From IMG/VR virus record IMGVR_UViG_2778261643_000010: a stretch of 24,518 nt of DNA. One strand, given 5' to 3'. Made by a program: the position numbers and the translations under genes. Positions 10,591 to 17,782 of the stretch are shown piece after piece. The stretch is from a virus (Duplodnaviria > Heunggongvirae > Uroviricota > Caudoviricetes). Every line of letters begins with the position of its first letter. Position 1 is the first letter of the stretch. The notes beneath the pieces are model-generated. The model was not told the origin of the DNA. It made no database searches and worked only from the letters and a program-made list of their open reading frames with translations.

Positions 10591-13500
10591 CTATATTTTT
10601 CCGCCTACGCCTTTAAACTTCTCAATAAACGAGACGATTTTCTGGAAAACTGCCTGTTTTTTCGTTTTATATTGCGGATTCAACGGACTAAGTTTTGGTA
10701 ATGTTTCGTTTAATTCTGTGCCATTTTCGGTGGCGTATTCGCGTTTTAAAGACGTGCGAATATAGCGTTTTGCTGCTTCTTCATTGAGGTTTTCTTCTTT
10801 TATCAATGCTTCTGCTTCACGTTGCTGTTCGCGTTGAGCAAACGTAAAGAATGCCTCAATGATACTGGCTTTGTCTGGTAAATCATCCAGGTTCGTTTGC
10901 TGAATAAAATCGACCACCAGGCCCTCTTTCGCCCGGTTTCCCAGGCTTGAACGAATTAAGCGTTTGACCTCTTCGATCATTTCGCCCTTGCCTTTATTTT
11001 GTCTGTTGTGTTCGAAAATCAGTCCAAGGATATAATCCAGGTTTATTTCCTGAGACTTCAGCAAATCGACCTCAAAAACTACATCATCCCAGTCAGTGGT
11101 TGATTTCTCTTTTTTCTCAGCTTCTTTCTCACGGCGCTGCCAGTCGCGAATATCGTTATAGGCAGAACGATAATCCTGAATCTTGCGATCAGCAGGGAGA
11201 CGAATTGTTTGCAATTCAGCGAACTTTTCATCATCCACATAATGTTCTGCTTTGAATTTTTCTACCGCAACAGGATCGCTAAGATCGATTTGTTGCAGGG
11301 CTTTTAGCGTGGCAAATTCATCATAGTTTTGCAGGATGTTCTCGGCACGCAGGTATTCGCCAAACAGTTTAACGAAGTCTTTCTTCTCTTTTTCACTTTC
11401 AATACTGGTAGGGTCAGGGAACCGTTGTTCCAGTTCTGAAACTACTGTCATGAAGCCGCGTTTAGCTTCACCAGTGGCAGCATCAGTAAAGCCTTCCATA
11501 TACTCTGCATAACTCTTTTCTAAAACCACATTTTTGGTATTTTTGTCACCAAACAGCGTTATGGCATCAATGGTTGAGCGTTCCAGATCCCGGAACGTGA
11601 CGATATTACCGAAGGTTTTAGTCGCGTCATAAATGCGGTTGGTGCGGGAGAATGCCTGCATCAGGCCGTGAAAACGCAAGTTTTTATCGACGAATAGCGT
11701 GTTCAATGTTGGAGCGTCGAAGCCGGTTAAAAACATCCCAACGACAATTAACAGATCGATATCCTGATTTTTAACCCGTTGGGCTAAATCACGATAGTAG
11801 TTCTGAAAACCGTTACTGTCGGTACTGAAGTTAGTTTTAAAATAGCTGTTATATTCACGAATTGCAGCGTCGAGAAACTCTTTAGCACTGCTGTCCATTG
11901 CGCTGGTATCAAAAGTTTCATCGGAAATTTCACCAATGGCATTTTGTTCTTCATTAGCGGCAAAGGAGAAGATTGTCGCAACACGTAGTGGTTTATAGGT
12001 AGCAGATTTATAAGCGGCTTCCTCTTGTAACCGTTTAAACGTCGCGTAATAGGCTTTCGCGGCATCCACGCTGCTCACTGCCAGCATGGCATTAAAACCT
12101 TTGGAGCCAGGGAAAGTACGGTGGGTTTTCTGGCGGAAGTTATTCAGGATATATTGCGTAATTTCCTGAATACGCATGGGATGAAGGAACGCCTGCTGAT
12201 TTTCAGCCGCACTCAGTTTTTTCTCGTCAGTTTCTGTCTCTAAAGACTTAAACTGTGGCCGCACATCGTTGTAGTCCACCTTGAATTTAAGCACTTTTTC
12301 ATCACGAATCGCATCGGTAATAACATATGAATGCAATTCACGGCCAAATACGCTGGCGGTCGTTTCTGAGCCTAAGGCGTTTTCCGGGAAAATAGGTGTG
12401 CCGGTAAAACCAAACTGATAATAGCGTTTGAATTTCTTCTTCAGGTTTTTCTGTGCTTCTCCAAACTGGCTGCGGTGACATTCATCAAATATAAACACCA
12501 CTTGCTGATTGTATACAGGCAGGTCGCTTTCTGCTTTCATCAGGTTATTAAGTTTCTGAATAGTGGTGACGATAATTTTGTTATCGTCCTTATCCAGATT
12601 TCGTTTAAGACCTGCGGTATTTTCCGAGCCGTTGACGCTGTCTGGCGAAAAACGCTGATATTCCTTCATGGTCTGGTAATCGAGGTCTTTCCTGTCGACC
12701 ACAAAGAAAACTTTATCAATAAAGTCCAGTTCTGTTGCCAGACGCGCGGCTTTAAAGCTGGTCAGGGTTTTACCGGAACCCGTGGTGTGCCAGATATACC
12801 CACCGCTTTCCGGTTTTGACCAGTTCTTCGCTGTAAAGGAGCTCTTAATTTTCCACAGAATGCGCTCGGTGGCGGCAATCTGGTACGGTCGCATCACCAG
12901 TAGCGTCTGACTACTGTCAAAAACGCTGTAGTTCACCAGAACATTCAGCAGAGTATGTTTCTGGAAAAAGGTAGCGGTAAAATCTTTGAGGTCTTTAATC
13001 AGCGTGTTGTCTGATTTCGCCCAGTTCATGGTGAAGTCAAAACTATTTTTATCGCGCTTTGTGGTGTTGGCAAAGTAACGGGTATCGGTGCCGTTAGAAA
13101 TGACAAACAGTTGCAGATACTTAAACAGGGAATTTTCGCTGTTAAAACTCTCTTTACTGTAACGATGTATCTGGTTGAAAGCCTCACGAATCGCCACGCC
13201 GCGCTTTTTCAGTTCGATTTGCACCAGAGGCAAGCCATTAACCAGGATAGTTACGTCATAACGGTTAGCGTGAGAACCTGCCTGTTCAAACTGCTGGATA
13301 ATCTGCACTTTGTTGCGCATGAGATTCTTTTTATCTATCAGATAGATGTTCTCAAGACGCCCGTCGTCAAAAATAAAGTCGCAAATATAGTCGATATGGA
13401 TTTTACGGGTCTTATCCAGAATGCCATCGCTCGGGTTGTCCAGATACTGCTCCGTGAAACGCCGCCACTCGCTGTCATTAAACACCACACCATTGAGGCT

Positions 13501-13707
13501 CTGAAGCTGTTCCCGAACATTGGACAGCATAGCCGACTGAGATTTTACGGATATAAATTCATAGCCCTGATTCCGCAGGTCCTGAATCAGTTCACGTTCC
13601 AGGTCCGATTCGCTCTGGTAGCTGTCGCCTGTTGGCTCAGCTTTGATGTACTTATCAAGGACGATAAAGTTATTGGATTCAGCAATAGTGTGTGTCTGAT
13701 GAGTCAT
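10591..13707 (-). CDS. hsdR: Type I restriction enzyme R subunit (HsdR), EcoR124-family (Type IC)
   Basis: Walker A motif [11 protein letters not shown] and DEAD-like [10 protein letters not shown] are present. The ORF track begins at 13767, but ATG 13707 ([11 protein letters not shown]) has an AAGGA ribosome-binding site and gives about 1038 aa, the length I recall for EcoR124I HsdR. Confidence 0.9.
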
Positions 13708-13828
13708 AGCGCATCCTTTGTGCCGTCTGGCAAGGGCCGGAAGGGAGTTAAGGGTGACTTCCGGCACGTAAAAAATAGTCTATATACAGACCGGATGTTA
13801 AGGTGGTCCGGTCGGTAGCAATGGTCAA

Positions 13829-15085
13829 TTAATTACTGACAGTTTCAGGTTTCGGGAAACTGAACAGTAAGTCACGATAGTACTCGTATTGTTTCTGGCG
13901 CAACTCGATTTCACGCGGGAGACCTTCGGTGATGGAGTTGGTCAGGGTGTCGAATTTATCGAGCAGAGCAGATATTCGCTCTTGTTTCTGTTTATCAGGC
14001 AATGGCACTGGTAATGTTTTTATAATATCTGCATTCAAGTTACTGACCGACCCGCTATTGATTTTACTTTCCCAATAATTTTTCACCTTTTTTGATGAAA
14101 GATAGTGATACAGATAATCAGCATTTAATTTTTCACCAAAATTGCTGATTGATGCCCATCCATCATGGATAGCTCCGGTTATCCTTAAAATATATGGTCT
14201 GCCAAAGCTCATAGAGTTAGAAATGACGAAATCACCGGGGTTCAAGATTCGCGATTTTTGGGCACCCTCTGCAGTTATTTTTTGTAAGGTTTTGTCAATG
14301 TATTTAGAGCCGGGGATAGTATCTCCGATTTTAATCCATGGGATACCATTTCCTTGTTCAGTAAGATAATTAACAATTGGCCTGGGGGATGCCCCACGTT
14401 GTATTTTGGCTACTTCTCCCAATGCCTTCCACTCAACCTCACCCTCTTTAAAACTCAGCAACTGGTCGCGATAGTAGTTGTACTGTTTTTTACGCATGTT
14501 AAGCTCAGCGGTAAGCTCAGCGGTAAGTGCAGTAAATTTGTCCAGAATCCGAACGATTTCAGACTGGATGGCGAGGGATTTTTCCGGATTATCCGGGCAG
14601 GGAATTGGGATGAGTAGTTTTGACATCAATGCATTTGAGCTTAGATTCGGTTGTGCTCCGCCCCCGGCGAGGATATAAATAGTCTCTGTATTTAACAATA
14701 AAAAATGGTATAAATAATTATTGTTTAGAATATTTTCTTTGGGTATGAATTTTCCAACCCGTTGGTTAAGATAACATTTTGTTCCTTTTTTATAAATTCC
14801 CACTTTTCCTGTAGTGGCACCTGACATTGCAATCAATATATTTCCCATAGATACCTCAAAGGAGGATAAATCTTCCTTGTAATCATTTAGTGAAAAGTAT
14901 TTCACCTCATCTAAGTCAACATTAAATCCATCTATATTTGTGATTCTAACTATCGGTAACCCAGTTTCTTTAAATAAGCTGCTTTTAAATGCAAATCCAT
15001 TTTTAAAATCACAAACATCCTTCAAGGGTTTCCACTCAACCTCAACCCCATCCAGCAATTTTTCCAGATAACTCAACTCGCTCAT
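13829..15085 (-). CDS. hsdS: Type I R-M specificity subunit (HsdS) with two target-recognition domains and a central TAEL-repeat region
   Basis: It has the conserved central block [54 protein letters not shown] and a conserved C-terminal block. The start overlaps the hsdM stop (ATGA). Confidence 0.9.
14501..14536. repeat. Two perfect 12-bp tandem repeats (AAGCTCAGCGGT) plus a degenerate third unit, encoding LTAEL-TAEL in hsdS
   Basis: Direct reading of 14501-14512 and 14513-14524, then the diverged unit AAGTGCAGTAAA. Confidence 0.85.
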
Positions 15086-16638
15086 TTCTGCACCTCGCAG
15101 CCTTCAATTTCAGCCACAATCGCATCAATATCTTTACGCAACTGGTCGATTTTGCTGACCGTGATTTTCAGCTCTGCATTCAACTCAGCGATATCGATAA
15201 TTTCGCGAGTATCTTTCGCTTCAACATAGCTGCTCACCGACAGGTTATAGTCATTAGCAACAACGGTCTCAAACGCGACTGATTTCGCCAGATGAGCAAC
15301 ATCTTCCTTGCTGGCAAATACCTGCATAATCTGTTCGATATGGGCATCGGTCAGGATATTGTTGTTGGTCTCTTTTTTGAATAGTTCGCTGGCGTCAATA
15401 AACTGAACTTTTGTATCTGTTTTATGTTTAGACAACACCAGAATGTTTACGGCAATGGTGGTGCCAAAGAACAGGTTCGGTGCCAGTGAAATCACGGTTT
15501 CGACATAGTTATTATCAACCAGATACTGACGGATTTTCTGCTCCGCGCCGCCACGGTAAAAAATACCCGGGAAGCAAACAATCGCAGCACGACCTTTGGC
15601 AGAAAGATAGTTCAGCGCATGTAGTACAAAGGCGAAGTCAGCTTTTGATTTGGGGGCCAGAACGCCAGCCGGGGCAAAACGTTCATCGTTAATCAGCGTC
15701 GGGTCATCGCTGCCAATCCATTTCACCGAATACGGCGGGTTAGAAACGATGGCATCAAACGGTTTTTCATCTCTGAAGTGTGGTTCAGTCAGCGTATTGC
15801 CCAGCTTGATATCAAACTTGTCGTAGTTGATGTTGTGCAAAAACATGTTCATACGCGCCAGGTTATAGGTCGTATGGTTGATTTCCTGACCAAAAAAACC
15901 TTCTTCGATGATATGGTCATCAAACTGTTTTTTAGCCTGCAACAACAGCGAACCGGAGCCTGCTGCCGGGTCGTAGATTTTGTTAACGTGGGTCTGCCCG
16001 TGCATAGCCAGTTGTGCAATCAGCTTAGAGACGTGCTGCGGTGTAAAGAACTCGCCGCCGGACTTACCGGCATTCGCGGCATAGTTAGAAATCAGGAACT
16101 CATAGGCGTCACCGAACAGATCAATCTGATGTTCGGTGAAGTCACCAAGTTTTAACCCTTCAACCCCTTTCAGAACCGCAGCCAGGCGGGCATTTTTATC
16201 TTTAACGGTGTTACCCAGGCGGTTACTGGTGGTATCGAAATCAGCAAACAAACCTTTGATGTCTGCTTCTGAAGGGTAGCCGTAAGCAGAACTTTCGATA
16301 GCAACGAAGATACTGTTTAAATCTGCATTCAGTCTGTCATTGGTATTTGCTTTCGCAGCTACGTTGCAGAAAAGCTGGCTTGGGTAGATGAAGTAGCCTT
16401 TGGTTTTGATGGCATCGTCTTTAATGTCATCAGTAATTACGCTGTCATCCAGTGCTGCATAACAGATGCTGTCATCATCGGCTTCCATATAGCTGGAAAA
16501 ATTTTCGCTGATAAAACGATAAAAAAGCGCGCCCAGAACGTACTGCTTAAAATCCCATCCATCGACTGAACCCCTGACATCGTTAGCAATTTGCCAGATC
16601 TGGCGATGAAGTTCTGCACGTTGTTGAATACTTGTCAT
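15082..16638 (-). CDS. hsdM: Type I R-M N6-adenine DNA methyltransferase (HsdM)
   Basis: Contains the AdoMet-binding motif [11 protein letters not shown] and the catalytic motif VSNPPYS. Confidence 0.9.
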
Positions 16639-16768
16639 TTTCTTCCACTTATTTCAGGCTTAAGTAATTGGCGGTGATTCTACAGCAACTTTGATGCTTT
16701 AGCAGTTCGGACATTAGGCAACGAATGACCTAATTAGAGCTTTTTGGAAAAGCGGTATTGTCGGTGCG

Positions 16769-16993
16769 ATGATAGCTATGTTTGGGTTCGCGATGGTGCA
16801 ATACAATGACGGTGAAAAGGTAAGCATCCAGTCTGATGGCTGGTATGGGCTGGATAGCCTGCAAAAAACCGCAGATAAAGCCTGTCAGCAATATGGAAAG
16901 TCTAAAGCCGTATATCAGCATAGCGCGAACGCTAATCCACATCTCGCGCCCGGCACGGGCGTTCAGAACACTATTTGGAAATGCGAACCATAA
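16769..16993 (+). CDS. Hypothetical small protein (74 aa)
   Basis: ORF only; no clear ribosome-binding site. It overlaps an antisense ORF (16730-16942), so the coding status is uncertain. Confidence 0.25.
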   Translation: MIAMFGFAMVQYNDGEKVSIQSDGWYGLDSLQKTADKACQQYGKSKAVYQHSANANPHLAPGTGVQNTIWKCEP

Positions 16994-17176
16994 CGCAGGT
17001 TGGCTTTTTACATCTTGGGCCGAATACTGATTCCGCGCTAAGTTGTTTGTGCGGAAGTGACACTGTGGAGCTTAGAAATAGTAAATACTGGTGGGCAACA
17101 AATTGAGCCTTCACACGCTCACCAGCACACACAAAAAATGGTTAAACAGCAAGGGAATTAATATCTCAGCGCGACA

Positions 17177-17314
17177 TTAAATAAGCCAGCGCACGCCTCT
17201 GTTTATCACTGACTTGAAAAACCATATCAGAACCACGATGAAGACAATCGCCAGCACTTGGCTAAGAACAGGCGCATTTAAAAATGCACTTAGAAACTGA
17301 AAAAATACAATCAT
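17177..17314 (-). CDS. Candidate small membrane protein (45 aa, MIVFFQFLSAFLNAPVLSQVLAIVFIVVLIWFFKSVINRGVRWLI)
   Basis: Has GAGGA eight nt upstream of the ATG and is strongly hydrophobic. It lies in an otherwise gene-poor spacer. Confidence 0.3.
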   Translation of the reverse strand: MIVFFQFLSAFLNAPVLSQVLAIVFIVVLIWFFKSVINRGVRWLI

Positions 17315-17782
17315 CAGGGTAATCCTCGTCAAATGTAAAGCTGTGTGCTCTCACGTTGACGTAGAAACCCAACCTCTATATAGTTGGATTCGGTGAAAGA
17401 AAGTCGTTAACGTGAACTTACGGCACATGTTTTCGGTATAAAAATCAGGGAACTGTGAATTCCTTGATGTAGTTGGGGCCTGTAATGCAGGCCCTATCTA
17501 TTAATGTCATGATTACATCTCAAATTTTCTCCTTATCATTATTATTTAATAAAATTCAATTAATAAAATATCCATTTCCTGTGTGTGCAAACACAGTATG
17601 AGGAAAATGGCCTCGTTGCAAGTGCATAACTTTGTGGATAACTCTGAAGGCGAATTTACATTTCGGCGCACCGCAAGCCAGATAAGCTGTGCGCAAAAAG
17701 CAATGGGGTGAGAAAAAAACTTTGAAGATATTGCGGCGACTAAATAATAGCCGTTATTCAATTATTCTGGATGGGATTTAAT

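Follow-up and report, generated by a model that had tools for sequence, protein, structure and literature searches.

The window analysed here is a 24,518-nucleotide stretch of viral DNA (IMG/VR record IMGVR_UViG_2778261643_000010) that carries a type I restriction-modification operon, and this study concerns an AT-rich block within its specificity gene, hsdS. On the open reading frame (ORF) map, three genes lie on the minus strand in the order hsdM-hsdS-hsdR. The first, hsdM (15082-16638), is an ORF for an N6-adenine methyltransferase subunit of 518 amino acids, with the Pfam domains N6_Mtase and HsdM_N and a match to chain 7bst_D, and its stop codon overlaps the start of hsdS by 4 nucleotides (ATGA). 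The hsdS ORF (13829-15085) encodes a specificity subunit of 418 amino acids with two Pfam Methylase_S stretches; the product is identical to RefSeq WP_001293041.1, and the DNA is a 100% nucleotide match to the annotated hsdS genes in NZ_CP122822.1 and NZ_MN510446.1. A gap of 121 nucleotides, with no prrC gene between hsdS and hsdR on the ORF map, leads to the ATG of hsdR (10591-13707), which is intact in this window and encodes 1038 amino acids with the Pfam domains HSDR_N, SWI2_SNF2, T1R_D3-like, and EcoR124_C. The open frame of hsdR reaches 20 codons further upstream, to a GTG at 13767 (13708-13767). Since the 1038-residue product that starts at the ATG at 13707 aligns with EcoR124I HsdR from end to end, this extension is probably untranslated.

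HsdM and HsdR reach 98-99% of the self bit score when compared with the EcoR124I chains. HsdM scored 1142 bits over its full length against EcoR124 HsdM (7bst_D, self-score 1161), and HsdR scored 2288 bits over residues 1-1038 against EcoR124I HsdR (2w00_A, self-score 2311). HsdS reached just 289 of 941 bits against EcoR124I HsdS, which was the only close HsdS structure in a PDB search. A Pfam search assigned the C-terminal domain of HsdR (residues 748-1051) to PF12008, EcoR124_C, with E = 1.5e-71, and the gene order hsdM-hsdS-hsdR is itself characteristic of type IC systems. With HsdM and HsdR similarity, the EcoR124_C domain, an HsdS block layout that includes TAEL repeats, and the gene order all in place, the locus is, as judged by these features, an EcoR124-family (type IC) restriction-modification system with an intact operon. 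This family was originally defined by subunit complementation and antibody cross-reaction with EcoR124I (PMC3874165).

The blocks of hsdS differ sharply in how closely they resemble EcoR124I. In the N-terminal conserved block (residues 1-19; 15029-15085, minus strand), 17 of 19 residues are identical to EcoR124I HsdS and G+C is 43.9%. It is followed on the same strand by target recognition domain 1 (TRD1; residues 20-158; 14612-15028), an AT-rich cassette delimited by homology breakpoints, with 32.6% G+C and a G+C fraction at third codon positions (GC3) of 0.29. The central conserved region (residues 159-219; 14429-14611), a coiled coil, is identical to EcoR124I at 61 of 61 positions and has 47.0% G+C. 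TRD2 (residues 220-375; 13961-14428) is AT-rich as well, and the C-terminal conserved block (residues 376-418 plus the stop; 13829-13960) is again identical, at 44 of 44 positions, with 46.5% G+C. Global alignment with 7bst_A left only 25 of 139 identical positions in TRD1 (18%) and 38 of 157 in TRD2 (24%). EcoR124I itself would have the same TRD1 and the same TRD2, and the allele in the window differs from it at both.

Direct repeats were found within hsdS, all read on the minus strand. Two tandem 12-bp repeats (D6; 14500-14523), whose copies are 100% identical, encode TAEL-TAEL. A 25-nucleotide repeat, 'x' (D3; copies 84% identical), marks the 5' edge of TRD1 (15023-15047, encoding GVEVEWK) and the 5' edge of TRD2 (14420-14444, encoding GEVEWK). 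A 46-nucleotide repeat, 'y' (D1; copies 72% identical), has one copy in the central conserved region (14451-14496) and the other in the C-terminal conserved region (13857-13902).

Base composition of recognition domains

The original prediction described the N-terminal recognition domain of hsdS, roughly residues 20-150, as close to 70% A+T and strikingly AT-rich compared with the rest of the operon, and our measurements agree with it. The stretch at 14640-15020, which corresponds to HsdS residues 23-149 and lies inside TRD1, has 32.0% G+C (68% A+T), compared to 44.7% for hsdM plus hsdR (45.8% and 44.2%, respectively) and 46.7% for the whole window. A sliding-window profile, suggested together with the prediction, gave a mean of 46.8% G+C (standard deviation 3.7) for 381-bp windows; only 0.2% of them fall below 14640-15020, and the minimum of the entire 24.5 kb, 30.7%, was at 14670-15050. 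The central and C-terminal conserved blocks proved ordinary in composition, as had also been proposed. Singling out the N-terminal domain was correct only in part: TRD1 forms the strongest dip, but TRD2 is depressed too (38.9% G+C, GC3 0.34), and 13999-14379, within TRD2, is the third-lowest stretch of the window. The contrast is between both TRDs and the conserved blocks, and not a feature of TRD1 alone.

Codon composition was used to separate the contribution of the encoded amino acids from that of synonymous choice. From its amino acids and the codon usage of hsdM and hsdR, TRD1 would be expected to have 41.8% G+C, compared to the 32.6% observed, and synonymous choice accounts for about 9 points of a G+C deficit of roughly 12. 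Its GC3 compares with 0.49-0.51 in hsdM and hsdR, and its G+C fraction at first codon positions (GC1) is 0.38 versus 0.51-0.53.

We then compared the window with other specificity genes. Thirteen enterobacterial type IC hsdS alleles were fetched and their proteins compared; every TRD among them has 32-45% G+C and a GC3 of 0.24-0.36, with 45-47% G+C in hsdM and 44-47% in hsdR, and two other TRDs in this set have a GC3 below that of TRD1 in the window. A broader set comprised 80 hsdS loci from diverse bacteria, picked by similarity to this HsdS, of which 72 were type-IC-like with flanks, 56 had an upstream hsdM, and 46 were used after dropping 20 with TRDs related to those of the window. Of the 72 loci, 94% have a TRD1 with less G+C than its flanks (mean difference -6.0 points) and 92% such a TRD2 (mean difference -4.5 points), while the conserved blocks of hsdS lie above the flanks (+3.3). 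TRD GC3 is about 19 points under hsdM GC3 in 98% of the 56 loci, a result that was unchanged in the reduced set (46 loci, 98-100%), and TRD G+C falls about 7 points under the amino-acid expectation in 98% of the 56. Measured against this distribution, the GC3 deficit of TRD1 in the window (-0.24) is unremarkable, at the 19th-21st percentile.

The same shift was seen in hosts whose genomes are themselves poor in G+C, with 28.7% in the TRD versus 33.8% in the flanks at one such locus (L010) and 30.9% versus 36.1% at another (L011). A plasmid-borne Klebsiella allele carries a copy of TRD1 that has 35% G+C although it is as diverged as its backbone. Because every TRD of the 13 enterobacterial alleles is AT-rich, and because this Klebsiella copy has diverged together with its operon and is AT-rich still, AT-richness does not show that a domain arrived recently. 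The AT shift is stable and shared by TRD cores throughout the family, and it holds no dating information. Two further observations concern composition within these genes: GC3 of the conserved coiled-coil blocks slightly exceeds that of the neighbouring hsdM (0.57 versus 0.53; 72% of loci, p = 1e-3), and TRD G+C follows the G+C of host genes with a slope of only 0.4-0.5.

Exchange of TRD cassettes between alleles

Approximately 1315 of 5426 complete E. coli genomes match hsdS, yet TRD1 is present in only 14 of them and the whole gene in only 3. In intact E. coli alleles, TRD1 is joined to at least four other TRD2s (WL164, MB15, 1919D3, and JX21CE8), and the Klebsiella plasmid allele (86% nucleotide identity) joins it to a further one. 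The hsdS of ET201, a chromosomal E. coli allele, departs from the window after TRD1 and is split by IS3. Conversely, TRD2 is joined to at least three other TRD1s (PER07-33, UTAK-6, and EB12-05/ETEC6335). The cassette edges can be placed closely, as alleles with a different TRD1 lose homology to the window at 15029-15032 and regain it at 14587-14611.

Shared TRDs are far less diverged than the genes that surround them. TRD1 is 99.5-99.8% identical in E. coli alleles with other TRD2s (1-2 mismatches per 417 nucleotides), and where TRD2 is joined to other TRD1s its identity is 98.7-100% (0-6 mismatches per 468 nucleotides), while these same alleles show only 95.0-96.6% identity in hsdM and 93.0-96.5% in the 5' part of hsdR. 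At the rate of the hsdM and hsdR flanks, 15-23 mismatches would be expected in the TRDs (Poisson P of 2.5e-4 to 4e-10; for the TRD1 deficit, 1e-6 to 2e-8). TRD1 is not intrinsically slow to evolve, since the Klebsiella copy has diverged from the window (86.1% nucleotide identity) much as its hsdM (84.0%) and hsdR (83.6%) have. Because of this excess similarity of shared TRDs, we infer that TRD cassettes have spread recently over E. coli backbones that were already diverged. The proposal that the N-terminal domain had been recently swapped therefore survives as regards exchange, with either TRD a candidate for the later arrival, on the strength of these mismatch counts, but not as regards the AT-richness on which it was based, which gives no signal of recency.

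TRD1 is also found at the second position. In FG92-1 and M21170 (NZ_CP142679.1, 527-1807; NZ_CP133922.1, 2501-3838), a TRD with about 97% nucleotide identity to TRD1 of the window occupies position 2, and the unit that moved includes 13 residues of the N-terminal block, which are duplicated, and the 26-residue start of the central block. Repeats D3 and D1 flank both TRDs, and one TRD occurs at both positions among alleles; these are the hallmarks by which we recognize the arrangement in FG92-1 and M21170 as domain movement within type IC hsdS.

Origin of the AT-rich block

We consider it most probable, at roughly 85%, that the locus encodes an EcoR124-family variant with foreign, reassorted TRD cassettes, in which AT-richness is the normal signature of a TRD and does not date the swap. 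The allele would have been made by TRD reassortment, through recombination in the conserved, internally repeated arms beside each TRD, and its AT-richness would be mainly synonymous, a long-lived feature of base composition that the TRD cores of this hsdS family share across bacteria. By analogy with the EcoR124 family, one HsdS would bind two HsdM subunits, each TRD would read one half of a bipartite DNA site, and the central coiled coil with its two TAEL repeats would fix the distance between the two methylated adenines; addition of two HsdR subunits would yield a translocating endonuclease.

Relatives of the TRDs outside the enterobacteria bear on where the cassettes came from. The nearest non-enterobacterial relatives of TRD1 are about 71% identical in amino acids and come from several phyla, in a search of 185,579 species genomes and among the matches listed from 5.8 billion proteins. 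Those listed matches are at most 238 amino acids long (fragments and half-size S subunits) and carry generic names; among them, there was none between 88% identity (enteric bacteria) and about 71%, and no characterized enzyme. Relatives at 57-69% amino acid identity were found in Anaerovorax, Haemophilus influenzae, Phocaeicola, and Clostridia. With blastn, TRD1 matched Fusobacterium vincentii at 71% of nucleotides (NZ_CP084075.1, 1840297-1840620; a 2.1-Mb record in the plasmid collection that is presumably a chromosome) and a Shewanella baltica plasmid at 67% (NC_017580.1, 61499-61900), similarities that show how widely the TRD1 family is distributed. TRD2 is 68-75% identical in amino acids to TRDs of Neopusillimonas, Idiomarina, Rhodoferax, and a UBP8 metagenome-assembled genome, and Shewanella atlantica has a relative of TRD2 at position 1.

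Several of these relatives belong to low-GC taxa, F. vincentii and the four groups at 57-69% among them, and could be taken, together with a TRD1 GC3 of 0.29 versus about 0.50 in hsdM and hsdR, as signs that TRD1 was imported recently from a low-GC donor genome and has not been ameliorated. We regard this as unlikely. No plausible recent donor was found, with the nearest non-enterobacterial relatives listed at only about 71% amino acid identity. The Klebsiella/Enterobacter copy, at 86.1% of nucleotides, has diverged like hsdM and hsdR, which shows that TRD1 has long belonged to the type IC pool of the enterobacteria, and it still has 35% G+C. Low-GC hosts likewise have TRDs that lie under their flanks, as do 92-94% of the loci overall. 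Nor is the low G+C likely to be a mere by-product of a DNA-binding domain with a high content of Lys, Asn, Ile, Phe, and Tyr. Such content does lower the expectation for TRD1 to 41.8%, about 3 points under the operon, and is visible in the reduced GC1, but the observed value is 9 points lower again, with GC3 at 0.29, and the observed-minus-expected difference of -7 points in 98% of 56 loci largely refutes amino acid content as a sufficient cause; we give this account very little weight.

That the AT-rich DNA has a function besides coding, for example as a promoter (internal or antisense) or as a site where H-NS-type silencing nucleates, appears similarly improbable. AT-rich tracts are typical H-NS targets, and hexamer pairs resembling promoters do occur on the antisense (plus) strand, at 14620-14647 (where 10 of 12 positions match), 14692-14721, and 14814-14842. 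However, the number of promoter-like sites, 11, is what shuffled sequence yields (9.7 ± 3.1), and the scan of the block for promoters and terminators likewise showed no excess over shuffled sequence; no conserved non-coding element was detected, and the same AT shift occurs in phyla without H-NS. Chance fluctuation in base composition has next to no probability. Short windows do fluctuate, and nothing further speaks for it, but the dip contains most of the lowest 381-bp stretch in 24.5 kb, about 4 standard deviations under the mean, with a binomial z of -5.0 for 14640-15020 against the composition of hsdM plus hsdR, and its edges coincide with TRD1 boundaries that were set independently by homology breakpoints, which refutes chance as the explanation.

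Three points weigh against our preferred reading, in which reassorted cassettes carry an ordinary TRD signature. The 80 loci were selected for their similarity to this very HsdS. The total G+C deficit of TRD1 (-14 points) is among the most extreme 4-5% of TRDs; TRD1 is at the edge of the family range partly through its content of K, N, I, F, and Y residues. The case for a different specificity is drawn solely from dissimilarity in sequence to EcoR124I.

Whether the shift amounts to a general law, with TRD cores strongly AT-shifted at synonymous sites in almost every host (GC3 of about 0.34 versus about 0.53 in hsdM, slope of about 0.45), is doubtful, and we put it forward only tentatively. One cause that would fit the pattern is a pan-bacterial pool of specificity cassettes, never in equilibrium with a host; another is GC-biased conversion in the crossover arms while the non-homologous cores drift to AT. 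Sharp et al. in 1992 (PNAS) reportedly described an atypical composition of hsd genes, and an explicit statement on the low G+C of TRDs was not found in the searchable literature. The uniformity of the synonymous AT shift of TRDs across bacteria is the only point here that is even mildly new. If such a law holds generally, composition alone could delimit specificity modules, and the pattern would inform how recombination shapes base composition within single genes. For the window itself, the AT-rich block within hsdS marks recognition domains and should not be taken as evidence of recent transfer.

Phage-plasmid setting, specificity, and known systems

Positions 1142-24462 of the window are 99.97-99.99% identical to the 99.95-kb plasmid of the pig E. 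coli strain ETEC1731. The one difference in that plasmid is an IS1203 in hsdR (at about 12888-12890 of the window; 16253-17466 in the ETEC1731 locus L001), with hsdM and hsdS intact; together with the IS3 in hsdS of ET201, this insertion suggests that partial inactivation is common among type IC systems of this pool. Annotated neighbours include a DNA polymerase III theta subunit, an S24 peptidase, a Phd/YefM antitoxin with a death-on-curing toxin, a late promoter-activating protein, and a terminase, which correspond by position to P1 hot, humD, phd/doc, lpa, and pac. Upstream of hsdM, 17120-17770 shares approximately 79% identity with the upfM-upfO/LPr91 region of phage P1. Because of these P1-type neighbours and this similarity, the host replicon can be identified as a P1-like phage-plasmid of E. 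coli. In some related plasmids, phd-doc adjoins hsdM. Between hsdM and the theta-subunit (hot-like) gene, 1.1 kb (16640-17770) holds no ORF of at least 80 amino acids, and a trough within it, at 17278-17658 with 36% G+C, is the second-lowest stretch of the window.

The identical hsdS is also present on pSvP1_F, and phage records of 89 and 95 kb, P1-like by size, carry type IC hsd genes with other TRDs. P1-like phage-plasmids of E. coli from pigs, cattle, and poultry carry an EcoR124-type system with a specificity that is reshuffled by exchange of single cassettes. Plasmids that are close relatives would then impose different methylation patterns and raise different barriers to the entry of phages and plasmids.

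Each TRD specifies one half-site independently (PMC3874165). Since both TRDs are unrelated to those of EcoR124I, both half-sites should differ from GAA and RTCG, in line with the earlier expectation that the specificity would not be that of the classical GAA-N6-RTCG site. Spacer length in the EcoR124 family depends on how many TAEL repeats are present, N6 for two and N7 for three (PMC3874165); having two repeats, the enzyme is therefore predicted to have EcoR124I-like spacing. Weak similarity links TRD1 to EcoKI TRD1 and to one TRD of the 7vru S subunit (E = 3e-4 for each), and the S subunit in PDB entry 1yf2 is similar to TRD2, with E = 1e-20 over the entire protein and 6e-14 over the stretch that matches best. 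EcoKI, 7vru, and 1yf2 are too remote for a half-site to be predicted from them, and Helicobacter pylori relatives of TRD1, at 58-61% identity, are too dissimilar for one to be transferred reliably. Literature searches on the protein accession WP_001293041 returned no papers, and nothing relevant was found on P1-like phage-plasmids combined with hsdS or on a methylome of strain AW1.7, which has identical TRDs at the protein level. Two hsdS alleles from P1-like plasmids, those of EB12-05 and ETEC6335 (NZ_CP062905.1, 2085-3281; NZ_CP122597.1, 2085-3293), which share one common TRD1 and carry the TRD2 of the window, are identical except for two versus three TAEL repeats.

The allele is a member of a well-known kind. 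For type I systems, TRD reassortment, switching of TAEL repeat number, and domain movement are established textbook knowledge. It is closest to EcoR124I and EcoR124II, the type IC prototype of plasmid R124 (GAA-N6/7-RTCG), with which it shares near-identical HsdM and HsdR, the same gene order, N-terminal, central, and C-terminal HsdS blocks that are 89-100% identical to those of EcoR124I, and, with EcoR124I, two TAEL repeats. It differs from EcoR124I in that both TRDs are unrelated, and in that the replicon is a P1-like phage-plasmid rather than R124. The spacer switch between EcoR124I and EcoR124II has a natural counterpart in the pair from NZ_CP062905.1 and NZ_CP122597.1.

Domain movement (DoMo) of TRDs has been described in hsdS genes of H. 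pylori and Streptococcus pyogenes (Furuta et al. 2011, PMC3077401). The alleles compared here share with those loci the x-TRD1-y-x-TRD2-y layout and the occurrence of the same TRD at position 1 or 2. They differ in being enterobacterial type IC genes on P1-like plasmids, and in that the unit moved in FG92-1 and M21170 extends into the N-terminal and central blocks. Natural and engineered hybrids, EcoDR2/RD2 from EcoR124I and EcoDXXI and StySQ/StySJ in type IA, acquired new specificities through TRD recombination in conserved regions (PMC3874165). The alleles described here would be natural examples of such hybrids inside one plasmid family, with the difference that exchange is read from sequence mosaics rather than from phenotype.

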